A stretch of 64,000 nt of DNA from Eledone cirrhosa (Eukaryota). Every line of letters begins with the position of its first letter. Within the stretch, counting starts at the first letter, position 1. The stretch covers positions 27,280,001-27,344,000 of the forward strand of contig OZ024754.1 in NCBI GenBank assembly GCA_964016885.1. The letters are read 5' to 3'. Below, piece by piece: positions 4,111-55,255 of this stretch. Both the position numbers and the translations under genes were made by a program. The notes beneath the pieces are model-generated. The model had not been told where the DNA came from and searched no databases. It worked only from the letters and a program-made list of their open reading frames with translations.

Positions 4111-4157
<47 letters not shown>

Positions 4158-4162
4158 CCTAT

Positions 4163-4370
4163 ATAGGAAAATGGTCAAGACCCAGACGGCAGAGCTCAAG
4201 CCGTTTCAACGGCTATTTCTGGACTATTGAATCCAGAAATAGCCGTCGAAACGGCTTGAGCTCTGCTGTCTGGGTCTTGACCATTTCCTATTACCCACTC
4301 TACTACCCCAAGTATTGAGTACTCTGGTGCGTTATAGTCCATCTGGTTCCTTACCACACTTCCTTCGTTA
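4163..4370 (+). mobile_element. Fold-back family A copy 1 (~62-bp hairpin + ~80-bp tail) next to (TA)n
   Basis: ATAGGAAAATGGTCAAGACCCAGACGGCAGAGCTCAAGCCGTTTC... mirrored by ...GAAACGGCTTGAGCTCTGCTGTCTGGGTCTTGACCATTTCCTAT, then tail ending CTTCCTTCGTTA. Confidence 0.85.
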
Positions 4371-4675
4371 TATAGTGGTAATAACTTGGTAAAAACATAC
4401 AAGGTATAGAGCAACTCATGTCCTCCGGAAAAGTACGTTCCTGGTATGACTCTGTTGTAGCAACTCGTACTAACCAATAATTATAATAATTATAATTATG
4501 GGTTAGTGATAAATATTCTCTTATTTGTAAATAACCGTGAAGACTATTCGAGCATTAGTGCTATTTGTATCGATTACCTAAACAATGTACCCCTAGCGGT
4601 CGACTGGTGTGATAGGACTGTCTGTATTCGTTCATTCTCCTGTCTTCGGCAATATTTTTTAGGTGTGTGTGTATG

Positions 4676-4740
<65 letters not shown>

Positions 4741-4745
<5 letters not shown>

Positions 4746-4927
4746 AAAAAGTATGACCCCAACGGCAGAGCTCAAGTCGTTTCGACGGCTATTTCTAGAA
4801 ATAGCCGTCGAAACGGCTTGAGCTCTGTCGTCGGGTCATACTTTTTCCAGTTTCCCACTCTACTACCCTAAGTATTGAGTACTCTGGTGCGTTATGGTCC
4901 ATCTGGTTCCTTACCACAATTCCTTTG

Positions 4928-4930
<3 letters not shown>
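4741..4930 (+). mobile_element. Fold-back family A copy 2
   Basis: Hairpin centred on CTATTTCTAGAAATAG, same tail; (TA)n on both sides. Confidence 0.85.
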
Positions 4931-5267: not shown

Positions 5268-5640
<373 letters not shown>

Positions 5641-6000: not shown

Positions 6001-6042
6001 TATATTATATATGTGTGTGTATGTATATATATATATATATAT

Positions 6043-6183
6043 TAGGAAAAAGTATGACCTCGACGGCAGAGCTCAAGCCGTTTCGACGGCTATTTCTGGA
6101 CTATTTCCCACTCTACTACCCTAAGTATTGAGTACTCTGGGGCGTTATGGTGAATCTGGTTCCTTATCACAATTCCTTTGTTA
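6043..6183 (+). mobile_element. Fold-back family A copy 4 (second arm deleted)
   Basis: Inverted arm joined directly to the tail at a CTATTTC microhomology. Confidence 0.8.
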
Positions 6184-6635: not shown

Positions 6636-7525
6636 TATATTGTTATACTTGGGGAGGGTCATATTTGTGTAATATTGCCAGAATTAATAACAGAACACAC
6701 TCACTGTTTGGTTGGTTTTCGCTTTTCGCTTCTGTGTCTTTTATATCGGTAATCTAATATACTCGGTCCTCAATGTTGCCATTGACTGACCGACGGTCAA
6801 AAATAATACAGATACAATATAGACACAAACACATATATATAGTTTATCATAAATCTTTCGTTGCACATCTGCAACATCGTCAGTTGTGCTATTGTTTCCT
6901 CCTGTTGAATTGTATGGCTACGCCATTTTTATTCAGTCTGTCTATATATTTATTTATTTATTTGCTTGTTTGTTTATTTTATTTTGTCTTCTTTGCGCAT
7001 GCGTTTGCGTGTGTGTATAGTGTACACAAGCACAATAACAACAAACACATAAACACACATTAGTCACCCAATCACGAACACACATCACACATCAAACAAA
7101 ACACTATACACACACGCAAACGCATGCGCAAAGAAGACAAAATAAAATAAACAAACAAGTAAATAAATAAATAAATATATAGGCAGACTGAATAAAAATG
7201 GCGTAGCCATACAATTCAACAGGAGGAAACAATAGCACCACTGACGATGTTGCAGATGTGCAACGAAAGATTTATGATAAACTATATATATGTGTTTGTG
7301 TCTATATTGTATCTGTATTATTTTTGACCGTCGGTCAGTCAATGGCAACATTGAGGACCGAGTATATTAGATTACCGATATAAAAGACACAGAAGCGAAA
7401 AGCGAAAACCAACCAAACAGTGAGTGTGTTCTGTTATTAATTCTGGCAATATTACACAAATATGACCCTCCCCAAGTATAACAATATTTGTTTCGACACA
7501 CGATTTCATATAAAAAACCTCGCAA

Positions 7526-7530
<5 letters not shown>
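6636..7530 (+). mobile_element. Fold-back family D: ~385-bp arms (6636-7023 / 7101-7486) + ~45-bp tail
   Basis: Near-identical inverted arms (the ORF track gives the same peptide on both strands); flanked by (TA)n; related pieces at ~16036-16450 and ~63420-63580. Confidence 0.9.
7229..7310 (+). ncRNA. Hammerhead-ribozyme-like motif (mirror copy at ~6815-6897 minus)
   Basis: CTGACGA-T-GTTGCA-GATG-TGCAAC-GAAA-GATTTATGATAAAC-TA; stem I pairing displaced or imperfect. Confidence 0.55.
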
Positions 7531-9208: not shown

Positions 9209-9543
<335 letters not shown>

Positions 9544-11439: not shown

Positions 11440-12325
11440 TGTTGCTGATGACAAACAACCATGAGTCTACCAGGAACTAGCAGAAGCAGAATAGAGGTAA
11501 ATAAAGCTACAAAAGTGTAAGAAGTGTGAGTATTCTGGGGAGTATTGTGTGTAACAGAGAATTCGCCATGCACAGTAATAGTAAGAAATACATGCACAAC
11601 CCATGAACAACCCTGGGAAGATATAACAACTGAAAAAAGCAGGCAACTAGAAGGCAGTAAAAAGAAGTAGGCAACTAGACATGGCAAAATCCCAAACTTT
11701 TGGTAGAATTATTTAATTGGGATCCTTGGTGTACTTGCAAAAAAGTTTGATGAGATGTTAAAGGAACCAGAAGTGAGTTTTGACTAGCTCATTAAGGGGA
11801 AACCACTTTAGTCTCTAAGAATAATTGTTTCTACTTTTGGCACAATGCCAGCAATTACCCAGTACATTACTGGTACTGCAAACACTCAAAACTACAGACT
11901 CATATCATGCTTTCCTACAATCTATAAGACCTTAAATGAAATAATATCGCAGAAACTGACCAACCTGTTCCAGAAAGGTAAAAAGGATTTTACAAAGATT
12001 AATACGGCTGTACAGGCCAATTACTAATCCACAATGAGGGGAAAACTGCAGATGAAGAAAAGTACAATCCCCGCATTGTAAGGACGGATTACCAGAAGAC
12101 ATTTGAGAGTGCTCTATATACGTGGATATGTAAACAAAGTAGTGCTCACGTTAGAAAGATACCTTAGCTATACCATGAGCAAGAGGCAAACGATTTTGCA
12201 GATATTGAATATGGATTAATAGAGGGATTTTTCAAGGTGGCACAATGTCACCACTCCTTCTCTGCTTAGCATTGGCACCATTAGCTGAAATACGAAACAG
12301 GGCTGGACTTTGTTATAAATGCTAC
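11440..12325 (+). pseudogene. Decayed Dong/R4-clade non-LTR reverse transcriptase fragment, interrupted by a SINE piece at ~11820-11877
   Basis: Interrupted peptides KIPNFW, LAKKFDEMLKEPE, NYRLISCFPTIYKTL, YGC..QLLI, DYQKTFES, RGIFQGGTMSPLLLCLALAPL (RT motifs NYRPI, DxxKAFDS, QGDSLSP). Confidence 0.8.
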
Positions 12326-12671
12326 AGCAAACAATACAGTACAATGATAACGCAAGAAAAAAAAATTATCATTTCGGACGCTAGTCCATCAGAAGATAGA
12401 ATGAAAAATAAAGGAAATAAAAAAAAAAACATAAAGAGAGTGAGAAGAGGGAGAATGGGAAAAACATTTTGGAGAAAATTTAGGATAAGACAGGATAGGA
12501 AAGGTGGGGAAACTATCCTGTCCTATAATAATATCTACACTACTCTCTTTTCCTTACGTACAGAGTACTAAGTTGAATAATGGACTTACTAGGCTTAACT
12601 AGTAATAACACATCCCTCTTTTTTCACGCGCTCTCTCTCTGCCTTTATAGATATATATATATACATATATT

Positions 12672-12726
<55 letters not shown>

Positions 12727-13102
12727 GGATTAACAAATAATAGTTAAATGCAGTCCACTTAGGTGAAGTCCAGTTATGGTATTCCAGGTAGTGGATGATA
12801 TTAACGCTTGGCTTGGTTTGACTCAACAAGGCGTTTTCATAGTGATGCTGCGGGTATGCTGTAATTCCTATGTTGTAAACACTTGGAGTAATAATAAATC
12901 AGGAAAGAAGGTTTACATGGTTTGCTATACAAAAAAGTTTTTAATCACATAGCTTACATTTGTTTCACTGAACTGGTATGTCTAGAGATCGCTATCCGCC
13001 TAATTTTGCGTCACTCGATCGCCAATACAGAATTATAACCAGTCAGATCTTCGGAGCATGCGAGAATGAAGAAAATACACAGGCAAGAAAATAAAAGAAA
13101 AT

Positions 13103-13531
13103 AACTGCAACTGTCACCTCCCAGATAGGTGCCCATTGGCGAATAGATGTCTCGATTCGAGCCTGGTGTACATGTGCACTGTCATCTCGGGTAACTCCAC
13201 TTGGAATTACATAGGATCCACCGCGGGTTCTTTTAAGAAAAGATGGTATGTGCACAGGCACTCGATGAAAAACCGAGCTCTTATGGGTTCCACCACCCTC
13301 GCCAGAAAAATATGGGAATTGAAGGACAGCAACGCTAGCTACACTATCAACTGGTCGAAGTTGTCGGCTGCTAAAACCTATAGTACAGGTATGTCCTATT
13401 GCGGGCTGTGTGATCTTGAGCTATTGTATATCCTTAGAAATGTTAAAAGACTACTTAATAATAAGTTAGAAAGATCTATCTTCTGCAGGCATAGAATAGC
13501 CACTAAATTCATAAGATTCAAACCTCCGTGA
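13103..13531 (+). CDS. C-terminal GIY-YIG endonuclease domain of a Penelope-like element (Neptune/Nematis-like), 5'-truncated, no RT
   Basis: Uninterrupted frame NCNCHLPDRCPLANRC (Cys knuckle) - LVYMCTV...NYIGST..FKKRWYVH..S - STTLARKIWELK - INW - CGLCDLE - LLNNKLE...CRHR, the typical PLE endonuclease signature. Confidence 0.9.
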   Translation, partial: NCNCHLPDRCPLANRCLDSSLVYMCTVISGNSTWNYIGSTAGSFKKRWYVHRHSMKNRALMGSTTLARKIWELKDSNASYTINWSKLSAAKTYSTGMSYCGLCDLELLYILRNVKRLLNNKLERSIFCRHRIATKFIRFKPP

Positions 13532-13867
13532 ATCGAACCAACATAACATAGCTTTAAATTAGGATACCTACTACCCACAAAAAATATATATTCATTAAGT
13601 ATACTATTTCCTTCACAAGTCTATACCACACAATAGTCTGTAAATACCTCATCTACCAACAATCTTACTCCTTCTCAGCTGCTGCAATCATTTGATCCTA
13701 GATCCTAGTTTTTCTCATTTCACTACTACAATGTTACTTTACCTTCTTTTTGCCATATTACAATTAGCACGCTTTTCTCTTTGCATGTATGTATATTTTT
13801 GTACGAGTGTATATTAGTGTGTATGTATGTGTCTATGTACACATATATGTGTATATGTATTTATATT

Positions 13868-13922
<55 letters not shown>

Positions 13923-14278
13923 AGATATATGCGTATATTAATTCGTTAACCTCTGTATTAACTCTACAACTATTGAGCTTTGACAGTGGTCCCACTCATG
14001 TATACGGTTGAAGATGAAGAGAAAGACTGTAAAAACTAGCTTATCTTTATAATTTAAAATTGATACACACTACGATACTTTTTGCCTTATGACAGCTGGT
14101 TTTCACGCCGTAACATTAGATACATTATATACCCCCCACCTAAGTAATGTCAGGGTCTCCTTAAATAGTTTATTGATAGCATTGTTGTAATAATTGTTGT
14201 AGTTTATTGTTCTAATTGAATGCCATAACTACTCCATATTTTCTTTTATTTTCTTGCCTGTGTATTTTCTTCATTCTC

Positions 14279-14393
14279 GCATGCTCCGAAGATCTGACTG
14301 GTTATAATTCTGTATTGGCGATCGAGTGACGCAAAATTAGGCGGATAGCGATCTCTAGACATACCAGTTCAGTGAAACAAATGTAAGCTATGT
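14279..14393 (+). ncRNA. Type I hammerhead-like ribozyme with extended stem II (mirror at ~12947-13061 minus)
   Basis: CATGCT-CCGAAGA-T-CTGACTGGT[~60 nt]ACCAGTTCAG-T-GAAAC-AAAT-GTA^AGCTATG; core has U4->C. Confidence 0.65.
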
Positions 14394-14440
14394 GATTAAA
14401 AACTTTTTTGTATAGCAAACCATGTAAACCTTCTTTCCTG

Positions 14441-14507
<67 letters not shown>

Positions 14508-14518
<11 letters not shown>

Positions 14519-14636
14519 GTACACGTACATACATATATGTATACAGACGTACAGTAGTATGTATATATATATACATACATGCACACATATATATATGTAT
14601 GTACGTGTATACATATATATGTACGTGTATATATAT

Positions 14637-14667
<31 letters not shown>

Positions 14668-14678
14668 CGTGTATATAT

Positions 14679-14711
<33 letters not shown>

Positions 14712-14980
14712 CGTGTGTATATATATATATGTATATGTATATATATATACATATAAGTATGTACACGTACATACATATATGTATACAGGCGTACAGTAGT
14801 ATGTATATATATATACATATAAGTATGTACACGTACATACATATATGTATACAGACGTACAGTAGTATGTATATATATATACATACATGCACACATATAT
14901 ATATGTATGTACGTGTATACATATATGTACGTGTATATATATATATATGTATATGTATATATATATATGTACGTGTATAT

Positions 14981-15013
<33 letters not shown>

Positions 15014-15262
15014 CGTGTATATATATATGTATCTGTATATATATATATACATATAAGTATGTACACGTACATACATATATGTATACAGACGTACAGTAGT
15101 ATGTATATATATATATACATACATGCACACATATATATATGTATGTACGTGTATACATATATGTACGTGTATACATATATGTATGTACGTGTACATACTT
15201 ATATTTAAAGTAACAGCCGTACTAAGAGTGGGAAATGAAATTTCGTTTCATTTATTCCGTTT
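14508..15262. repeat. Family E-derived TA-rich minisatellite (unit CATATAAGTATGTACACGTACATACATATATGTATACAGACGTACAGTAGTATG x4) plus family E tail
   Basis: Unit at ~14508, 14750, 14816 and 15050 matches 6256-6310; 15200-15262 is the reverse complement of 6200-6255. Confidence 0.75.
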
Positions 15263-15280
15263 ATATATATATATATATAT

Positions 15281-15678
15281 TTAAAAGAGTAGAGGTGTAA
15301 CACACAAGTTATTATATGTTGGTAAACGGAATAGAAAATGCTGACAAATTGTTCACAGTGAAAAATAGTTTAATTAGGAATAAGTGAGAATTAGTAATTG
15401 TATTGGTTAGTATTCAGTTTTGGTTTTAAGTTTTACCGGTTGCGCATTTCTAATGCTTTTCAAAAATAATTTTTTGCGTCCGTGATGTTTGCTCTGATCA
15501 GAGCAAACATCACCGACGCTCTATCTCAAAATTATTTTTGAAAAGCATTAGAAATGCGCAACCGGTAAAACTTAAAACCAAAACTGAATACTAACCAATA
15601 CAATTACTAATTCTCACTTATTCCTAATTAAACTATTTTTCACTGTGAACAATTTATCAGCATTTTCTATTCCGTTTA

Positions 15679-15684
<6 letters not shown>
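15281..15684 (-). mobile_element. Fold-back family B copy 1 (~180-bp arms, ~35-bp tail)
   Basis: Palindrome centred at 15497/15498 (TGCTCTGA|TCAGAGCA); TTGGTAAACGGAATAG ... CTATTCCGTTTACCAA; tail 15281-15313; in (TA)n. Confidence 0.9.
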
Positions 15685-19888: not shown

Positions 19889-20075
19889 TATATGCATGTA
19901 TATATGCATGTATATATATGTAAATTTTCAGTATATGTTCGTTGTTTACCGACACCTCAGTGTGCAGATTGGAGCATTCGACGAAGTACGCAGGTTGGTT
20001 TGTTTACTCCGTAGTAATGTAAAATAAAATAATTAAGTCAAATATTTAAAATTTGGCTTCGTTTATTAAAGGTGT

Positions 20076-20130
20076 ACTGCTATATATATTTCGGTGACAG
20101 CCATCCTTGGCTGTGACCTCTTCAGGCAGT
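20076..20130 (-). ncRNA. Type I hammerhead ribozyme (left arm)
   Basis: Exact reverse complement of 20366-20420. Confidence 0.85.
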
Positions 20131-20365
20131 CCGAATTGGTGTGGTAGAGACGGGTACACATGTTGTTGAGGTGTTTAACTTCGTCAATACTCCGATATGC
20201 CCAGTTCCTGGTTGGGTTGTTATTTCTCTGAGGAACTGGAATCATATAATATGATTCCAGTTCCTCAGAGAAATAACAACCCAACCAGGAACTGGGCATA
20301 TCGGAGTATTGACGAAGTTAAACACCTCAACAACATGTGTACCCGTCTCTACCACACCAATTCGG

Positions 20366-20420
20366 ACTGCCTGAAGAGGTCACAGCCAAGGATGGCTGTC
20401 ACCGAAATATATATAGCAGT
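20366..20420 (+). ncRNA. Type I hammerhead ribozyme (right arm)
   Basis: Stem I ACTGC/GCAGT; core CTGAAGA; stem II GGTcACAGCCA-AGGA-TGGCTGTcACC; GAAA; minimal stem III T-ATAT-A; cleavage triplet AUA. Confidence 0.85.
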
Positions 20421-20499
20421 ACACCTTTAATAAACGAAGCCAAATTTTAAATATTTGACTTAATTATTTTATTTTATATATATATATGTATATACGGAT

Positions 20500-23103: not shown

Positions 23104-23449
23104 TAACGAAGGAATTGTTGTAAGGAACCAGATGGACCATAACGCACCAGAGTACTCAATACGTAGGGTAGTAGAGTGGGTAATAGGAACAAGTAGGACC
23201 CCGACGGCAGATCTCAAGCCGTTTCGACGGCTATTTCTGGACTAAATTCTAATTTAGTCATAAATTCTAATTTAGTCGTACCTTTTCCTATATATATATA
23301 TATATATATAAAACGAAGGAAATGTGGTAAGGAACCAGGTGGACCATAACGCACCAAAGTACTCAATACTTAGAGTAGTAGAGTGGGTAATAGGAACGAG
23401 TAGGACCCCGACTGCTGAGCTCAAGCCGTTTCGACGGCTAATTCTGGAC

Positions 23450-23452
<3 letters not shown>
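23104..23452 (-). mobile_element. Two tandem family A copies (6: 23104-23290; 7: 23311-23452), short arms collapsed or lost
   Basis: Each has tail + long arm up to TTCTGGACTAAA; separated by (TA)n. Confidence 0.8.
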
Positions 23453-23483
<31 letters not shown>

Positions 23484-25982: not shown

Positions 25983-26125
<143 letters not shown>

Positions 26126-26652
26126 AATTAAGTCAAATATGTAAAATTTGGCTTCGTTTATTATAAATTATAGATATATTGCTATATATATTTCGGTGAC
26201 AGCCATCATTGGTTGTGACCTCTTCAGGCAGTCGGAATTGGTGTGGGAAAGGCAGGTACACATGTTGTTGAAGTGAGTTTTACTCCGTCAATACATCAAT
26301 ATGTCCAGCTCCTGGTTATGTTGTTGTTTCTCTGAGGAACTGGAATCAGAGAAATAACAACATAACCAGGAGCTGGACATATCGATGTAAATGACGGAGT
26401 AAAAAACACTTCAACAACATGTGTAGCTGTCTCTACCACACCAATTCGGACTGCCTGAAGAGGTCGCAGACAATGATGGCTGTCACCGAAATATATATAG
26501 CAGTATATCTATAATTTATAATAAATGAAGCCAAATTTTACATATTTGACTTAATTATTTTAAATTACTCCGGAGTAAACAAACCAATCTGCGTACTTCG
26601 TCGTGTGCTCCAATCTGCATACTGAGGTGTCGGTAAACAACCAAGATATACT

Positions 26653-26655
<3 letters not shown>
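26126..26655 (+). mobile_element. Fold-back family C copy 2, HHRs at 26178-26232 (-) and 26450-26504 (+)
   Basis: Arms 26126-26333 / 26347-26556, tail to 26655; ACTGC-CTGAAGA-GGTCGCAGACAATGATGGCTGTCACC-GAAATATATATA-GCAGT. Confidence 0.9.
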
Positions 26656-26689
<34 letters not shown>

Positions 26690-30152: not shown

Positions 30153-30520
30153 GTAGAACACTGGAAGGTAATATCCGTAGTGGTAGAGCACTCAGTCCAT
30201 GGGACGAGTTAGGTAGAAGTGGTACCTCAACAGTTAGTTCACCATACGGTTGTCCTTCCCGTTCCGTATAACCATGTCCATTACGAGCTGAGGATCCGCT
30301 AAGATGAAACAATTGTTCTCGGTATAGAGAACTAACTGTTGTGTAACCACTTCTATATATATATATTTCATTATAATATTTAACTCCGTAATAGCACCAC
30401 CAACTACAAAAACAAAGACGGTTGAACTGCTTTACGTTGAGTACTCTCAATATTATTACATTACGAATGACCATACGGAATAGACCAGCTCTATACAGTG
30501 GTGAACCTCAAACCTGAATA
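30150..30520 (+). mobile_element. pLTR-like element family F copy 1 with HHR at 30284-30321
   Basis: CGAG-CTGAGGA-TCCGCTAAGAT-GAAAC-AATT-GTT^CTCG; enclosing IR AGAAGTGG..CAACAGTTAGTTC / GAACTAACTGTTG..CCACTTCT; tail related to 32111-32232. Confidence 0.7.
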
Positions 30521-30640
30521 AATATATATATATATTTATTTATTTATATTCATATATACATCGGGAATTTGAAGAACAAATAGGCATAAATTTGTCTATT
30601 ATTTCCTCGTATTTTTAATTATATATATATATATATATAT

Positions 30641-30991
30641 ATTGGTAAACGGAATAGAAAATGCTGACAAATTGTTCACAGTTGAAAAATGGTTTAATTA
30701 GGATTAAAAGAGTATTAGTGATTGTATGGGTTAGTATTCAGTTGTGGTTTTAAGTTTTTAAGTTTTTACCGGTTGCGCATTTCTAAATGCTTTATTTTTG
30801 AAAAGCATTTAGAAATGCGCAACCGGTAAAAACTTAAAAACTTAAAACCACAACTGAATACTAACCCATACAATCACTAATACTCTTTTATTCCTAATTA
30901 AACCATTTTTCAACTGTGAACAATTTGTCAGCATTTTCTATTCCGTTTACCAATATATAATAACTTGTGTGTTACACCTCTATTCTTTTAA
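30641..30991 (+). mobile_element. Fold-back family B copy 2
   Basis: Arms 30641-30792 / 30802-30954; tail TAACTTGTGTGTTACACCTCTATTCTTTTAA; in (TA)n. Confidence 0.9.
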
Positions 30992-31073
30992 CTATATATA
31001 TATATATATATAAGTATATATATATATATATAAGTATATATATATATATAAGTATATATATATATATATATAA

Positions 31074-31112
<39 letters not shown>

Positions 31113-31134
31113 TATATATATATATATATATATA

Positions 31135-31171
<37 letters not shown>

Positions 31172-31264
31172 GTATATATATATATGTATATATATATGTA
31201 TATATATGTATATATATATATGTATATATATATGTATATATATATATATGTATATATATATTTG

Positions 31265-31313
<49 letters not shown>

Positions 31314-31314
31314 G

Positions 31315-31503
31315 TAGGAGGTGAGTTTTATTGTAGTACAATAAAGCAATGCAGATATCGGATAAGAAGCACTCTACAGTTTGTAGGACTGGAGTATACA
31401 TAATATATAAGATCAAAAGATGGTTAAAGGAGTTCCATGTATTTGAAATGCGCATAATAAAATACATGGAACTCCTTTAACCATCTTTTGATCTTATATA
31501 TTA
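31315..31503 (-). mobile_element. Short fold-back element; arms 31400-31444 / 31459-31503, tail on the left
   Basis: ATAAGATCAAAAGATGGTTAAAGGAGTTCCATGTATTT mirrored; spacer GAAATGCGCATA is an HHR 3' half. Confidence 0.75.
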
Positions 31504-34699: not shown

Positions 34700-35727
34700 A
34701 CAACAACAACAACGACAACTACCACAGCTACCACTATTACTACAACTACCACTACTACTATCACCACCACCACCACCACTACCAGAACTACCACTACTAC
34801 TACAACTACCACTACTACTATCACCACCACCACCACCACTACCACAGCTACCACTATTACTACAACTACCACTACTACTATCACCACCACCACCACCACT
34901 ACCAGAACTACCACTATTACTACAACTACCACTACTACTATCACCACCACCACCACCACCACTACCAGAACTACCACTACTACTACAACTACCACTACTA
35001 CTATCACCACCACCACCACCACTACCACAGCTACCACTATTACTACAACTACCACTACTACTATCACCACCACCACCACCACTACCAGAACTACCACTAT
35101 TACTACAACTACCACTACTACTATCACCACCACCACCACCACTACCACAACTACCACTATTACTACAACTACCACTACTACTATCACCACCACCACCACC
35201 ACTACCAGAACTACCACTACTACTACAACTACCACTACTACTATCACCACCACCACCACCGCTACCACAGCTACCACTATTACTACAACTACCACTACTA
35301 CTATCACCACCACCACCACCACTACCACAACTACCACTACTACTACAACTACCACTACTACTATCACCACCACCACCACCACTACCACAACTACCACTAT
35401 TACTACAACTACCACTACTACTATCACCACCACCACCACCACTACCACAACTACCACTATTACTACAACTACCACTACTACTATCACCACCACCACCACC
35501 ACTACCACAGCTACCACTATTACTACAACTACCACTACTACTATCACCACCACCACCACCACCACTACCACAACTACCACTATTACTACAACTACCACTA
35601 CTACTATCACCACCACCACCACCACTACCACAACTACCACTACTACTACAACTACGACTACTACTACTACCACCACTACTACTATTACTACTACTGCAAC
35701 TACGCTTACAACAACAACTACTACTAC

Positions 35728-35772
<45 letters not shown>

Positions 35773-35821
35773 TACTACTATTACTACTACTGGAACTACG
35801 CCTACAACAACAACAACAACA

Positions 35822-35864
<43 letters not shown>

Positions 35865-35946
35865 TGACTACTACTATTACCACCACTACTACTATTACTA
35901 CTACTGGAACTACGCCTACAACTACAACAACAACTACTACTACTAT

Positions 35947-36006
<60 letters not shown>

Positions 36007-36087
36007 ACTACTACTATGACTACTACTACTACTACTACCACTACTATTATTACTACTACTGCAACTACGCCTACAACAACAACAACA

Positions 36088-36123
<36 letters not shown>

Positions 36124-36296
36124 GCTGCTGCTCCTGCTGCTGCTGCTACTAATACCACTAATAATGCTGTTGCTACTACTACTACTATGACGACCACCAC
36201 CACCTCCACTAACGTCACTACCAGAACCACTAGCAACTTAGCCACAACAACCACCACCACCAGCACCACAACAACACCACCACCACCACAACCACC

Positions 36297-36327
<31 letters not shown>

Positions 36328-36540
36328 CAACAACCACCACCACAACAACACCACCACCACCACCACCACCACAAGAACTATCAACACCTTCATCAGCACC
36401 ACCCCACTACCACAACAACACCAACACCACCACCACCACCACCGCCACCACCACCAACAACAGCAACAATAGCAGCAATACCGTCACCAATAGTAACAAC
36501 AACGGCAGCTGCAATCATAACAACAACAACAACAACACCT
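34700..36540. repeat. ACC/ACT-based ~60-bp minisatellite grading into simple triplet arrays
   Basis: Unit ACCACTATTACTACAACTACCACTACTACTATCACCACCACCACCACCACTACCACAGCT repeated ~15 times to ~35640. Confidence 0.9.
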
Positions 36541-36908
36541 GCAAGAGTAACAGCTAGTCATTACAACAACAATATGATAATTCATAATTTGTTGACAACT
36601 TGCTATTGTTGTAGTTGTTGCTGTTGCTGTTGTTGTTGTAGCTGTTGTGGATGGTTTTGTAGTAGTGGTCTTGTCGATGGTGTTGCTAGTGTTACTGTTG
36701 TAGTTGCTGTTGTTAGGTTGGCGGTGTTGTTGTAGATGTTGTTGTTGTGGTTGTTGTTGTAGTTGTCGTTGTTGTTGTTGTAGCCGTTGTTATATAGGTA
36801 AAGTAGCAACACCTGGAAGTCTGCCTGGTTTCTGTAACAGGTATTGGCATTTAACATTAACATACTATAGCAGAAGAGAATAAATATAACATGATTATAT
36901 AAAAAAAA

Positions 36909-37010: not shown

Positions 37011-37204
37011 TAGGAACAAGTATGACTCCGACGGCAGAGCTCAAGCCGTTTAGACGGCTATTTCTGGACTGAAATAGCCGCCTAAACGGCTTGAGCTCTG
37101 CCGTCGGGGTCATACTTTTTCCCTTTTTCCCACTCTTGTATCCTAAGTATTGAGTACTCTGGTGCGCTATGGTCCATCTGGTTCCTTACCACAATTCCTC
37201 TTTG

Positions 37205-37207
<3 letters not shown>
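37011..37207 (+). mobile_element. Fold-back family A copy 8
   Basis: Hairpin + tail in (TA)n; both arms carry TAAAC where other copies have GAAAC. Confidence 0.85.
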
Positions 37208-44036: not shown

Positions 44037-44236
44037 TATTTTATAGAAGGAGCTTATACAGGACTAGTACTGTTTCATTCAGATGAAATCTTCAGGAAGC
44101 TTCCTGAAGATTTCATCTGAATGAAACAGTACTAGTCCTGTAGAAGCTCCTTCTATAAAATAAAAAAAAATTTTACTCTGCCATGTATTGAGTACCTTAC
44201 TTACTGTGGTTATCCCCGACTCAACCCGGGACCTAC

Positions 44237-44240
<4 letters not shown>
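44037..44240 (+). mobile_element. Fold-back element: 63-bp arms centred on AAG|CTT, back-to-back HHR cores, ~78-bp tail
   Basis: CTGAAGA-TTTCATCTGAAT-GAAAC-AGTACTA-GTC at 44104-44137, mirrored at 44062-44095; (TA)n both sides. Confidence 0.88.
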
Positions 44241-45489: not shown

Positions 45490-45539
<50 letters not shown>

Positions 45540-45568
45540 ATGTTGATGTAAATATATATATTTATATA

Positions 45569-45786
45569 TAATAAAGGAATTGTGGTAAGGAACCAGATGG
45601 ACCATAACGCACCAGAGTACTCAATACTTAGGGTAGTAGAGTTGGAAATAGGAAAAAGTATGACCCCGACGGCAGAGCGCAAGCCGTTTCGACGGCTATT
45701 TCTGGACTATTTGAGTCCAGAAACTATTTGAGTCCAGAAATAGCCGTCGAAACGGCTTGAGCTCTGCCGCCGGGGTCATATTTTTT

Positions 45787-45790
<4 letters not shown>
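45569..45790 (-). mobile_element. Fold-back family A copy 9
   Basis: Hairpin with duplicated loop segment CTATTTGAGTCCAGAAA; in (TA)n. Confidence 0.85.
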
Positions 45791-47599: not shown

Positions 47600-47757
47600 T
47601 CTGTGCTTGATGGTGGTGATGGTGGTGATGATGATGGTGATGGTGTTGTTGTTGGTGGTGGTGGTGGTGTGGAGACTGTAGCAACAGCAACAGCACTTGC
47701 AGCGGCAACAGCAACAGGAGTAGAATTGGCACTACCAACAAGAGCAGCAGCAGCAAT

Positions 47758-47790
<33 letters not shown>

Positions 47791-49290
47791 GGCAGCACTA
47801 GCACCAACAAGCGCAGCTGTAAGAAAACTAACAACTCCACTAAGAAACAACTGCAGCAGCAATAACCACCGCAGCAGCAATAACTCTAACAATCAGCACC
47901 AGTATTCGTACTAACTATCACAGTGGTAATAACAGTAACAACAATAACAAACTGCAACAGTAGCAGCACTACAATAACAACAACATCAGCAGCAACAACA
48001 GCAGAAACCGCAGCAGTAATAGATAAAGATTGCTATCAAAACTATTGTAAGTGCGGCAACAGTAACACCAACAACAATTACTATAACCACATAAGTTATA
48101 ACAACACCAACCGCAGCAACAATAACTACAGCAGCAACAATAGCTACAGAAGCAACAGTAACTGCAGCAGCAATAGTAGCAACATCAGCAACAATATCTA
48201 CATCAGCAACAATAACTACAGCAACAACAATAACAACAACAGCAACAGCAGCAACAATATTGCAGCAGCAACAGTAGCAACAGTAGCAACAGTAGCAACA
48301 GTAACTACAGCAGCAGCAATAACTACAGCAACAGCAATAACTACAACAGCAACAGCAGCAACAATAACTGCAGCAACAGCAGCAACAATAACTGCAGCAG
48401 CAGCAACAGTAGCTACAGTAGCAACAGTAGCAACAATAATTACAGCAGCTACAGTAGCAACAGTAGCAGCAATAACTACAGCAACAGCAATAACTACAAC
48501 AGCAACAGAAGCTACAGTAGCAACAGTAGCAACAATAATTACAGCAACAGCAATAACTACAGCAGCAACAGCAGCAAAAATAACTGCATCAGCTACAGTA
48601 GCTACAGTAGCAACAATAATTACAGCAGCAACAATAACTACAGCAGCAACAGCAGCAACAATAACTGCATCAGCTACAGTAGCTACAGTAGCAACAATAA
48701 TTACAGCAGCAACAATAACTACAACAGCAACAGCAGCAACAGTAGCTACAGTAGCAGCAATAACTACAGCAGCAGCAATAACTACAGCAACAGCAATAAC
48801 TACAACAGCAACAGCAGCAACAATAACTACATCAGCTACAGTAGCAACAATAATTACAGCAACAGCAATAACTACAGCAGCAACAGCAGCAACAGTAGCT
48901 ACAGTAGCAGCAGCAACAGTAGTCACAGCAGCAGCAATAACTACATTAACAGCAATAACTACAACAGCAACAGCAGCAACAATAACTGCATCATCAACAG
49001 TAGCTACATCAGCAGCAGCAGCAGTAGCTACAGCAGCAACAGTAGCTACAGTAGCAACAATAACTACAGCAACAGCAACAGTAGCAACAATAACAACAAC
49101 AACAATAACTATAATCACACCAGTTATAGTAGCATGAGCAGCAGCAGCAACATGAGCAGAAACAACCGCAGCAGAAACTGCAGCAACATATTTGATTTAG
49201 AAGTAAAAACTACTACAAACAAGTATTGTAAGTGCGACAACAACAACAGCTACAACAACAACAACAACAACAATAGTTACACTATAACAG

Positions 49291-49322
<32 letters not shown>

Positions 49323-49410
49323 GCAATAATAACAATAACTATACTCTAGTGACAACAACAGCAACAATAGGAATAACAATAATAGCGATACTATAACGAC
49401 ATCAACAACT

Positions 49411-49445
<35 letters not shown>

Positions 49446-49647
49446 TGCAGCAACAACAACAACAGCAGCAGCAAAACCAACAACAGCAGCAACAACAACT
49501 GCAGCAGCAACAATAACAGCAGCAGCAACAACATTTGCAGCAGCAACAACAACAGCAGCAGCAAAACCAACAACAGCACAACAACAACTGCAGCAGCAAC
49601 AACAACAGCAGCAGCAAAACCAACAACAGCAGCAACAACAACTGCTG

Positions 49648-49694
<47 letters not shown>

Positions 49695-50035
49695 GCAACA
49701 ACAACTGCAGCAGCAACAATAACAGCAGCATCAACAACAACGGCAGCAGCAACAACAACTGCAGCAGAAACAATAACAGCAGCAGCAAAACCAACAACAG
49801 CAACAACAACAACAACTGCAGCAACAACAACAGTAGCAGCAACAACAACAGCAGCAGCAGAAACAACAACTGCAGCAGCAACAACAACTGCAGTAGCAAC
49901 AACAACAGCAGCAGCAACAACAACTGCTGCAGCAACAACAACAGCAGCAGCAAAACCACAACAGCAGCAACAACAACTGCAGCAGCAACAACAACAGTAG
50001 CAGCAGAAACAACAACTGCAGCAGCAACAACAACT

Positions 50036-50070
<35 letters not shown>

Positions 50071-50167
50071 TACAGCAGCAGCAACAACTACAGCAGCAGC
50101 AACAACAACTGCAGCAGCAACAACAACAGTAGCAGCAGAAACAACAACTGCAGCAGCAACAACAACT

Positions 50168-50202
<35 letters not shown>

Positions 50203-50246
50203 TGCAGCAGCAACAACAACTACAGCAGCAGCAACAACTACAGCAG

Positions 50247-50280
<34 letters not shown>

Positions 50281-51063
50281 AGCAACAACAATAGAGGCAC
50301 TATAACAACAACAACAACAGCAACAACAATAGAGGCACTATAACAACAACAATAACAACAACACCAACAACAATAGAGGCACTATAACAACAACAACAAC
50401 ACCAACAACAATAGAGGCACTATAACAACAACAACAACAACAACACCAACAACAATAGAGGCACTATAACAACAACAGCAACAACAACAACAGCAACAAC
50501 AGTAGAGGCACTATAACAACAACAACAGCAACAACAGCAACAACAATAGAGGCACTATAACAACAACAACAACAACAACAACAACAGCAACAACAATAGA
50601 GGCACTATAACAACAACAACAGCAACAACAACAACAGCAACAACAGCAACAACAATAGAGGCACTATAACAACAACACCAACAACAGCAACAACAATAGA
50701 GGCACTATAACAACAACAACAACAACAACAACAACAATAGAGGCACTATAACAACAACAACAACAACAACACCAACAACAATAGAGGCACTATAACAACA
50801 ACAACAATAACAACAACACCAACAACAATAGAGGCACTATAACAACAACAACAACAGCACCAACAACAATAGAGGCACTATAACAACAACAACAACAACA
50901 ACACCAACAACAATAGAGGCACTATAACAACAACAACAACAACAACAACAACACCAACAACACCAACAACAATAGAGGCACTATAACAACAACAACACCA
51001 ACAACAATAGAGGCACTATAACAACAACAACAGCAACAACAGCAACAACAATAGAGGCACTAT

Positions 51064-51099
<36 letters not shown>

Positions 51100-51520
51100 A
51101 CCAACAACAATAGAGGCACTATAACAACAACAACACCAACAACAACACCAACAACAATAGAGGCACTATAACAACAACAACAACAACACCAACAACAATA
51201 GAGGCACTATAACAACAACAGCAACAACAACAGCAGCAGTAACAACTAGATATAGTAATAACTGTTGTGATGTGAGCGGAAGGTAGAGAGAAATGAAGGA
51301 AAAGAGGAAAAAAGTAAAGAAAGAAAAAATGTTAACAAAATTATGAATGAAAGGTTAAAGGAGGAGAAAAAGTGGCGATACTCGGAGTAGTTAATAAAAC
51401 ATACAGCAGCAACTACTACTACAGCAGCAGCTACTACTACTGTTACTACTAATAATAGTACTGCGGCTGACACTACTACTACTACTACCACTACTACTGC
51501 TACTACAGCTGCTGATATTG

Positions 51521-53419: not shown

Positions 53420-55255
53420 CTGGTGGTGGTTTTGGTGTTGGTGGTTGGGTTGTGGTGGTGACGGTATTGGTGGTAATAGCGGTGATGGTGGTGGTGGTGT
53501 TGGTGGTAACAGTGGTGATGGTGGTTGTGGTGACGGTGAAGGGTTTGCGTTGGCGGTGGTGATGGTGTTGATGGAGGTTCAGTGGTGGTGGTGATGGTGT
53601 TGATGGAGGTTCAGTGGTGGTGGAGGTGTTGGTGGTTGGGTTGGTGGTGGTGACGGTATTGGTGGTAATAGCGGTGATGGTGGTGGTGGTGTTGGTGGTA
53701 ACAGTGGTGATGGTGGTGGTGGTGGTGTTGGTGGTAACAGTGGTGATGGTGGTTGTGGTGACGGTGAAGGGTTTGCGTTGGCGGTGGTGATGGTGTTGAT
53801 GGAGTTTCAGTGGTGGGGGTGTTGGTAATAGTGGTAATGGTGGTTGTGGTGATGGTGGTTGTGGTGAAGTGGTTGTGTTGGCGGTGGTGATGGTGTTGAT
53901 GGAGGTTCAGTGGTGGGGGTGTTGGTAATAGTGGTAATGGTGGTTGTGGTGATGGTGGTTGTGGTGAAGTGGTTGTGTTGGCGGTGGTGATGGTGTTGAT
54001 GGAGTTTCAGTGGTGGGGGTGTTGGTAATAGTGGTAATGGTGGTTGTGGTGATGGTGGTTGTGGTGAAGTGGTTGTGTTGGCGGTGGTGATGGTGTTGAT
54101 GGAGGTTCAGTGGTGGGGGTGTTGGTAATAGTGGTAATGGTGGTTGTGGTGATGGTGGTTGTGGTGAAGTGGTTGTGTTGGCGGTGGTGATGGTGTTGAT
54201 GGAGTTTCAGTGGTGGGGGTGTTGGTAATAGTGGTAATGGTGGTTGTGGTGATGGTGGTTGTGGTGAAGTGGTTGTGTTGGCGGTGGTGATGGTGTTGAT
54301 GGAGTTTCAGTGGTGGGGGTGTTGGTAATAGTGGTAATGGTGGTTGTGGTGATGGTGGTTGTGGTGAAGTGGTTGTGTTGGCGGTGGTGATGGTGTTGAT
54401 GGAGTTTCAGTGGTGGGGGTGTTGGTAATAGTGGTAATGGTGGTTGTGGTGATGGTGGTTGTGGTGAAGTGGTTGTGTTGGCGGTGGTGATGGTGTTGAT
54501 GGAGGTTCAGTGGTGGGGGTGTTGGTAATAGTGGTAATGGTGGTTGTGGTGATGGTGGTTGTGGTGAAGTGGTTGTGTTGGCGGTGGTGATGGTGTTGAT
54601 GGAGGTTCAGTGGTGGGGGTGTTGGTAATAGTGGTAATGGTGGTTGTGGTGATGGTGGTTGTGGTGAAGTGGTTGTGTTGGCGGTGGTGATGGTGTTGAT
54701 GGAGTTTCAGTGGTGGGGGTGTTGGTAATAGTGGTAATGGTGGTTGTGGTGATGGTGGTTGTGGTGAAGTGGTTGTGTTGGCGGTGGTGATGGTGTTGAT
54801 GGAGGTTCAGTGGTGGGGGTGTTGGTAATAGTGGTTTTGGTGATGGTGGTTGTGGTGACGGTGAAGGGTTTCTGTTGGCGGTGGTGATGGTGTTGATGGA
54901 GGTTCAGTGGTGGTGGAGGTGTTGGTGGTAACAGTGGTGATGGTGTTGGTGGAGGTTCAGTGGTGGTGGTGGTGGTGATGGTGTTGGTGGTAACAGTGGT
55001 GATGGGCTGGAGGTGACGGTGGAGGGGTTGTGTTGGCGGTGGTGGTGATGGTGGTGGTGATGATACAGTTGGTGCTGTTGTTGGTAGTGGTGGTGCTGGT
55101 GATATTGATAGTGGTGTTGATGGTGGTGATGGTGGTGGTGGTGGTGATACAGTTGATGCTGTTGTTGTTGGTGCTATTGTTGGTGTTGTTGTTGGTGTTA
55201 TTGTTGGTGTTATTGTTGGTGTTGTTCTTGTTGGTGTTGGTGTTGGTGTTATGCT
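53420..55255. repeat. GGT-rich satellite with an exact 100-bp unit x10 (53801-54800)
   Basis: GGAG(G/T)TTCAGTGGTGGGGGT recurs at 53801, 53901 ... 54801. Confidence 0.92.

Follow-up and report, generated by a model that had tools for sequence, protein, structure and literature searches.

A Probably Hydra-Clade, 5′-Truncated PLE Copy with an Inverted Arm and a Long One-Sided Tail in a TA Repeat of Eledone cirrhosa

The locus at positions 12,672–14,507 of the DNA analysed here (a stretch of 64,000 nucleotides from Eledone cirrhosa, referred to as the window; all coordinates are those of the window) raises the question of which mobile element left an endonuclease-like ORF between two inverted arms, only one of which carries a tail, and how this arrangement was made. 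In our judgement the locus probably represents a 5′-truncated copy of a Hydra-clade PLE that lies inside a TA repeat and faces, head-to-head, a shorter and inverted copy of its 3′ end. The arrangement was likely made by the RT-endonuclease of a full-length relative, which would have nicked the two strands and copied RNA from each cut end, with two fixed internal start sites. The clade, the (TA)n target, the inverted truncated 5′ copy, and the one-sided tail have already been published for PLEs; the 168-nt tail, the 80-nt stem II, the C at hammerhead position 4, and the bulged stem that opens the tail are less ordinary.

Layout of the Element

The features of the element are given below (coordinates, strand, description, and basis).

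12674–12725, no strand: left (TA)n, target repeat (sequence).
12726–12893, minus strand: one-sided tail of 168 nt, family sequence between site 1 (the common end) and site 2 (the further end); left side only, deeply covered by other copies in runs X1, X2, and X12.
12821–12889, minus strand: predicted bulged stem, ACUC/GAGU, 2-nt bulge, CAAG/CUUG, 51-nt inner part; starts 4 nt past site 1 (minimum-energy fold).
12894–13103, minus strand: left arm, an inverted and heavily 5′-truncated copy of the element 3′ end (100% complementary to 14237–14446).
12955–13054, minus strand: type I hammerhead motif, antisense copy, from core to cleavage site (pattern scan).
13103–13531, plus strand: end of a 5′-truncated ORF with CxCx5C linker and Hydra-type GIY-YIG endonuclease domain (LVY, YIG, R, H, CxxC, E, N, CxH); from homologues and fold, with other copies extending upstream of 13103.
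13532–14236, plus strand: unique part of the long 3′ untranslated region, including a microsatellite at about 13776–13946; other copies cover 13532–13780.
14237–14446, plus strand: right arm, which is the pLTR part at the 3′ end of the sense copy and stops at site 1 (complementarity).
14286–14385, plus strand: type I hammerhead motif with core CCGAAGA (C at position 4), 80-nt stem II region, GAAA, short stem III, and predicted cleavage after 14385 (pattern scan; compared with file S2 of PMC8557442 and 43 relatives).
14444–14507, no strand: right (TA)n, target repeat (sequence).

Most of the layout proposed in an initial annotation, which had been made from the sequence alone, was confirmed. 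The two inverted repeats described there as apparently identical and 210 bp long are 100% complementary, with 1133 nt between them; each holds a hammerhead-like motif; the tail sits on the short antisense arm on the left and has no counterpart on the right; and (TA)n borders both ends. The ORF-bearing copy does end in (TA)n, as stated, at 61 nt past the predicted cleavage site and not at the ~50 nt given previously. At the inversion junction, arm and body have a single base in common (13103, a 1-nt overlap), and the microsatellite in the 3′ untranslated part, which the initial annotation does not list, is of the (TA)n/(TG)n type. Given that more than 100 runs of (TA)6 or longer occur across the window, a TA flank by itself is weak evidence.

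The Truncated ORF and its Endonuclease Domain

The stop-to-stop frame at 13070–13531 (153 aa) has its stop codon (13529–13531) directly after the domain. Its coding part proper begins at 13103, as the first 11 codons are the inverted arm read backwards, and the first in-frame ATG (13172) lies inside the GIY-like strand. A profile built from 115 full-length relatives had its sole match in the window at 13073–13501. The term “intact”, previously applied to this GIY-YIG domain, is thus appropriate for the domain and not for a gene; the copy holds no RT, is truncated at 13103, and lacks a start codon upstream of the domain, so that no enzyme can be made from it.

A full HMMER search yielded 3666 relatives at E ≤ 0.001, the best 150 of which share 31–48% identity with the query; a word-index search for longer relatives gave none among 116 candidates. 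A search against Pfam GIY-YIG had been suggested as a check, and Pfam gave no match at the cut-off, either with the domain or with 16 homologues (one weak GIY-YIG match, E = 0.019); the GIY-YIG call rests instead on homologues and fold. A PDB sequence search with the domain gave no significant match, and in a Foldseek search with the domain model GIY-YIG enzymes ranked first at a best E of only 0.25, which is not significant. The ESM Atlas returned unnamed clusters at 0.96, one of which contains GIY-YIG in 11% of its members, a lead only. The query retains Y34, Y47, G49, R58, H62, E117, and N130 (numbered from 13070), each conserved in 138–149 of 143–150 aligned homologues, and deviates from the homologue majority at a few conserved sites (e.g., L118 instead of K). 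An AlphaFold model of the domain, built on an alignment of 63 sequences (including 62 of the best 150 matches, chosen as short ones), reached a pLDDT of 93.6 and presented the I-TevI catalytic domain as its best structural match (89 residues at an rmsd of 2.2, Z = 9.9); EndoII (7.8) and UvrC (6.7) came next. Because of the conservation among homologues and the I-TevI-like fold of the model, we identify the encoded protein as a GIY-YIG domain with a predicted I-TevI fold.

Assignment to the Hydra Clade

The available text of Craig et al. 2021 (PMC8557442) describes the Hydra clade as having a CxCx5C linker, lacking CCHH, and carrying CxxC and CxH around E and N, an RT with RWK and DKT, canonical hammerheads, and (TA)n targets, the latter used by nearly all Hydra families. 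The query contains the linker (CNCHLPDRC, 13106–13132) as well as CGLC..E and N..CRH; the corresponding patterns CxCx5C, CxxCxxE, and N..CxH are found in 99, 147, and 131 of the best 150 homologues, respectively. No CxxC lies between GIY (LVY) and YIG in the query or in any of the 188 parsable homologues (of 269), i.e., there is no CCHH, and the query also lacks a Cx2-5CxxC linker, a pattern present anywhere in 15 of the 150 homologues. Among relatives of at least 650 aa (n = 115, at about 40% identity to the query; a biased sample, as most were found with one full-length match as query), RWK was found in 87, DKT in 89, and YRDD in 114; as the copy itself carries no RT, the RT motifs considered here come from these relatives.

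The PLE origin of the ORF, as first proposed, was borne out, and we assign the element to the Hydra clade, on motifs rather than on a tree with Neptune or Nematis proteins. The resemblance to Neptune/Nematis-like PLEs that had been suggested did not hold: Neptune and Nematis both require CCHH, which is absent here, and are excluded on that ground, and the relatives further present DKT/DKS and RWK at the RT N-terminus, so that an origin in either clade is scarcely credible. A PLE of the Naiad/Chlamys type, with an N-terminal endonuclease before the RT, was also considered and rejected; the stop codon follows right after the domain, and the domain matches near the C-terminus (last ~140 residues) of all 115 full-length RT proteins.

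Hammerhead Motifs

A pattern scan for type I hammerheads gave eight matches in the window, including one per arm, as compared to 0–2 in 10 shuffles; Rfam gave no match anywhere in the window at its gathering threshold. In a free fold of the element's hammerhead region, stems I and II form and stem III does not (z = −0.33). For comparison, 79 Hydra-type loci were taken from metagenomes, many of them near-duplicates; no nucleotide similarity between the element and these loci was found. A sense hammerhead is present in 60 of the 79, and in 43 it lies 3′ of the ORF; position 4 is U in all 43, their stem II regions span 11–29 nt, and one hammerhead 5′ of the ORF among the relatives reads CCGA. The distance from stop to ribozyme, 754 nt in the element, ranges from 67 to 771 nt in these relatives and is longer in only one of the 43. 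In file S2 of PMC8557442, as far as available, all 26 Hydra rows have a CUGA core and a short stem II. The CCGA core of the element is shared by contigs of runs X1 and X6, and 247 reads of X12 represent a sister form or subfamily with a canonical core. According to the accessible portions of the respective papers, U4C lowers activity in vitro, yet is sufficient in a viroid (PMC3088659), and PLE hammerheads are weak or protein-assisted and were dispensable for insertion in vitro (PMC4209133 and PMC11167929). We regard the motif as a putative hammerhead of Hydra form with C4 and an 80-nt stem II, which may act as a ribozyme. Lunse and co-workers reportedly studied PLE hammerhead variants in 2017, work that may bear on such ribozyme variants.

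Other Copies of the Family

Reads and contigs from 4 of 14 listed runs, aligned to 12500–13780, indicate a multi-copy family (16 contigs in X1, 1032 contigs in X2, and 4377 reads in X12, depths that do not equal copy numbers), with deeper coverage by other copies on the tail and arm than on the ORF. An 819-nt X1 contig and five X2 contigs run upstream of 13103 with different sequence, and the copy in the window is therefore 5′-truncated at this position; the 30 letters seen of the X1 continuation form an open frame by hand translation. At the other end of the arm, 200 X12 reads pass from 12894 into (AT)n (agreement 0.77), as does one X1 contig; site 1 is therefore the common, TA-flanked end of the family. 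This read-end evidence on TA concerns site 1 and comes from 17 of 233 loose ends listed, rows at repeats being excluded. The bias toward TA flanks that had been anticipated for other copies is thus seen at the common end, and it was already published for the clade.

Run X12 also contains eight other arm-to-body joints (with the body starting at 13390–13720) and three arm-to-arm fold-back joints, each with 2–15 reads. All come from one restriction-site library, six joints in the main table have two start places each, and fold-back joints can be artefacts; we take the joints to represent further two-armed insertions like this one, some of which lack an ORF, with library artefacts being possible.

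Among the differences listed for the coding stretch, 14 of 15 are synonymous (27% expected), indicating that the family diversified under purifying selection on the endonuclease. A recent insertion had been proposed from the open frame and the identical arms; the open frame says little about age, since selection among family lineages also explains it. The arms, which an X1 contig matches without a difference over 167 nt, plausibly favour a young insertion; gene conversion or assembly polishing could give the same picture.

The One-Sided Tail and its Bulged Stem

The tail, at 168 nt, contrasts with published PLE tails of 30–40 bp. Because it is deeply covered by other copies in all three runs, it does not represent local flank. 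A possible origin of the tail as the ORF N-terminus was also evaluated; two frames looked suggestive by eye, and profiles of the 115 full-length proteins and of their first 70 residues scored nothing, so this origin was rejected.

A bulged stem of the form ACTC CAAG [51 nt] CTTG TT GAGT starts 4 nt past site 1. It is the minimum-energy fold of the tail start (pair probabilities of 0.86–0.98 for seven pairs and 0.51 for the eighth), has a folding z of only −1.7, and is followed by CAA, not by the usual ACT. A short hairpin considered at the same place was weak (z = −0.22) and was replaced by this long-loop pairing. A first, strict short-loop search had missed the stem, and the loop limit of 70 nt was set after the tail was seen; the long-loop motif occurred in 0 of 5000 shuffles, a figure flattered by this post hoc limit.

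Of the 79 Hydra-type loci, 51 yielded a total of 55 distinct post-ribozyme segments; the motif GCTC-stem-loop-stem-NN-GAGC was found in 28 of these segments, as compared to 1–7 in 30 shuffles. The first stem lies at +33 to +54 after the cleavage site, i.e., in the 5′ leader, and in six cases a second copy follows 60–66 nt on. The first inner position of the stem alternates between C-G and T-A (28 and 21 of 55, respectively), and a pairing test with sequence-only anchors gave 152 inner pairs against a mean of 109, a value as high being reached in 0 of 2000 re-dealings, uncorrected for relatedness in a set with many near-duplicates. Under a relaxed search, 5 of 25 relatives had inner lengths of 67–85 nt, which may represent pairings that span two stems; given these lengths, the long loop is possibly not unique to the element. 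The bulged stem is conserved in Hydra relatives, and it likely marks or positions the start of RT, a role we infer. Two Hydra-type loci (L063 and L075) run into (TA)n at +106 and +103 post-ribozyme; this point lies ~60 nt beyond the first stem, at the usual start of the second.

No description of the bulged stem, or of tails of such length, was found in the literature searched, which comprised sources other than subscription papers and Repbase reports. The available text of PMC8557442 does not contain the word “hairpin” and gives tails as 30–40 bp; that of a preprint on animal retrozymes (bioRxiv 10.64898/2026.07.22.740005) contains neither “hairpin” nor “tail”.

Bulged Stems in Fold-Back Repeats of the Window

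At the nucleotide level, the element resembles none of the other elements in the window. In its strict form, the bulged-stem motif occurs 15 times in the window, as compared to 0–4 times in 20 shuffles; it is found in seven copies of a small fold-back family (4297, 4857, 5426, 6110, 9422, 23384, and 45642, with one copy counting twice), and the other strict motifs include one at 30383, behind a Hydra-form hammerhead. It opens 4 of 16 one-sided extensions (this element, 26126, 44040, and 45651), as compared to 0–1 in 300 shuffles and none on the other strand; the extensions were drawn automatically at 30–260 nt, and the motif offsets are 7–15 nt as drawn. The motif is missing from the remaining 12, of which six are satellite matches (four of these being one and the same), and the elements at 15320, 30643, and 6641 (tails of 39–45 nt) have no bulged stem. 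The locus had been presented as a Rosetta stone that ties the hairpin families to PLEs. This link is partly supported: the stem shared at the tail start connects several of the families to Hydra-type elements; the element itself has no nucleotide similarity to them, and families with 39–45-nt tails have no such stem. The idea is thus valid for a part of the families, by way of the cis stem they share and toward Hydra, and does not name the family of this element as the helper.

Proposed Mechanism and Alternative Explanations

In the preferred reading, a full-length Hydra RT-endonuclease would nick both strands of (TA)n, cleavage at TA being a presumed property of the enzyme, and RNA would be copied from both cut ends, with priming at two fixed internal sites. 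The cDNA primed at site 1 (14446) would extend for 1344 nt and end just upstream of the CxCx5C motif; the second cDNA, primed at site 2, which lies 168 nt further 3′, would reach a length of 378 nt. The aborted 5′ ends of both cDNAs would then be joined over one shared base, and the one-sided tail would be the stretch between sites 1 and 2. The bulged stem 4 nt past site 1 likely sets the register of RT, and protein-less hairpin repeats with the same stem would borrow a Hydra-type enzyme. A second stem is predicted past 12726 (site 2), where none is visible. Two-ended priming is likely by analogy with in vitro work on a Poseidon element; according to the available text of that study (PMC11167929), both strands are cleaved and extended and two internal start sites bound the tail. 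As a more tentative proposal, possible rather than probable, we suggest that a conserved bulged RNA stem (RCUC, 2-nt bulge, GAGY) is the feature to which Hydra-clade RT-endonucleases respond, with RT starting a few bases before it, that two such stems set both ends and the tail, and that protein-less hairpin repeats spread by carrying only the stem.

The inverted arm of the same Hydra element could instead have arisen when a single cDNA folded back, through self-priming or a template switch, with the tail marking where second-strand or repair synthesis ended. Self-priming was proposed for head-to-head PLE palindromes (PMC3846280, available portions), a single template would account for the identical arms, and arm-to-arm joints are present in X12. 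However, the junction is no palindrome, with 1133 nt between the arms and one shared base, the element meets TA with a 3′ end on either outer side, and purified PLE protein extends both strands (PMC11167929, available portions); we consider this origin quite unlikely. A further alternative leaves the stem real and gives it another role (a promoter or UTR element, RNA packaging, or an aid to ribozyme folding); its position would be incidental, and base pairing between AU-rich RNA and the nicked TA primer would define the ends. Site 1 (...GAUUUAU-UAUU) could indeed pair with a TA primer, the first stem of the relatives lies in the 5′ leader, 33–54 nt past the cleavage site, and short TA runs are found just before the first stem in 4 of the 79 loci. 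Site 2, however, ends in ...AAUCCG and has no TA likeness, the stem lies 4–15 nt from the end in families that are unrelated and whose inner loops range from 3 to 51 nt, and the two loci that enter TA at +103 and +106 do so where the second stem usually starts, leaving this alternative somewhat unlikely.

The perfect 210-nt inverted repeats and TA flanks also look MITE-like, and the inner microsatellite is not bridged by reads, as would suit a DNA transposon or fold-back element with TIRs that captured a GIY-YIG fragment, or two unrelated insertions that meet at the microsatellite. The repeats are unequal, however, owing to the 168-nt extension, a sense hammerhead lies downstream of the ORF as in 43 of the 79 Hydra-type loci, and other copies show arm-body joints at many points, as expected from variable 5′ truncation; both versions are very improbable.

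Two-ended copying by a Hydra-type enzyme, as preferred here, can be compared with several known systems, all cited from the portions of the sources available. The closest are Hydra-clade PLEs with a C-terminal endonuclease, such as Hydra-1_Obim and Penelope-13_HM (PMC8557442), which share with the element CxCx5C, the absence of CCHH, CxxC/CxH around E and N, the (TA)n target, a type I hammerhead of CUGAnGAU...UGAAAC form, and an inverted 5′-truncated copy at the 5′ end; Penelope-13_HM has the same layout, with an inverted truncated 5′ copy. They differ in having a CUGA core and a short stem II, as compared to a CCGA core and an 80-nt stem II region here. The Poseidon element PAc of Anolis (Frangieh et al. 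2024, PMC11167929) has a two-ended tail and an AT-rich target, and its two-strand cleavage and extension serve as the model for the two arms; it belongs to another clade, has a tail of 30–40 bp, and its start sites lie inside an AC-rich stem-loop within the ORF, whereas the tail here is 168 nt long and non-coding by profile search, with a stem just past the first site. Insertions of the Pen2a_Av type (inverted pLTR and a one-sided 31-bp tail; PMC3846280) likewise have inverted repeats flanking the unit and a tail on one arm; they present a 9-bp target duplication and a direct pLTR pair, whereas the element lacks a direct pLTR and its (TA)n surroundings allow no duplication to be read. The element also resembles opposite-strand hammerhead pairs 100–700 bp apart that were ascribed to truncated PLEs (PMC4209133) and animal non-LTR retrozymes, proposed to be non-autonomous PLE derivatives (bioRxiv 10.64898/2026.07.22.740005); it differs from both in having coding sequence and no tandem array. 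The link to the small repeats of the window is the shared stem, which is not mentioned in the available text of PMC4209133 or of the preprint.

If the stem has the role proposed, it would be the first defined cis signal for PLE retrotransposition: a short conserved stem at a fixed distance from the end, present in families with and without coding sequence and accommodating loops from 3 to 51 nt in length. To our knowledge, the choice of internal start sites by PLEs has been studied in vitro in only one element. The locus adds a coding anchor and the extreme of a long loop with a long tail, serving as a natural test case (51-nt loop, 168-nt tail, and the same 4-nt register). Many TA-flanked “MITE-like” hairpins in such genomes could then be assigned to a PLE clade.

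Other Repeats in the Window

The small palindromic family lies between TA runs (4145–4374, 4744–4928, 5355–5539, 6042–6181, 9349–9507, 23311–23453, 37013–37205, and 45533–45788); its copies are ~140–260 nt long, with an ~80-nt tail that opens on a perfect bulged stem, and no hammerhead core was seen in them. Two other fold-back copies (19896–20494 and 26096–26686), 82% alike, carry outward-facing hammerheads (CTGAAGAGG...CCGAAATATATATA) and a tail of ~90–98 nt; a damaged bulged stem, whose upper helix is 7 bp long, opens this tail. A 120-nt fold-back at 44039–44237 contains a Hydra-form hammerhead (CTGAAGAT...TGAAAC) and a 78-nt tail with a bulged stem. At 30190–30522, a hammerhead-like motif (CTGAGGAT...TGAAAC) is followed by a short TA run and a bulged stem with a 40-nt loop, with 139 nt to the next TA run; this is a second case of a long loop with a long tail. 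On the plus strand at 1826–1900, CTGAAGA...GAAAC encloses an ACTC/GAGT stem, possibly another hammerhead variant.

Two fold-back copies at 15280–15682 and 30642–30992 have a one-sided tail of 39–40 nt; no hammerhead or bulged stem was found in them, and they may follow another PLE clade. A longer fold-back between TA runs (6637–7528) has 387-nt arms, 99% complementary, a 77-nt spacer, and a 45-nt tail on the right; no hammerhead was found in it. On the plus strand at 11900–12330, frameshifted remains in three frames look like a non-LTR (LINE) reverse transcriptase, presumably R4/Dong-like; Pfam gave nothing on the last frame, and this RT-like stretch was considered as a partner of the element and rejected, as the Hydra profile does not match there. 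To the right of the element, 14508–15260 is a TA-derived minisatellite with units of the TATACATATAAGTATGTACACG type, which has an inverted relative near 31000 (30790–31316). Long, strongly skewed tandem repeats were identified at 47675–51263 and 53456–55251, with a related inverted array at 34819–36572.
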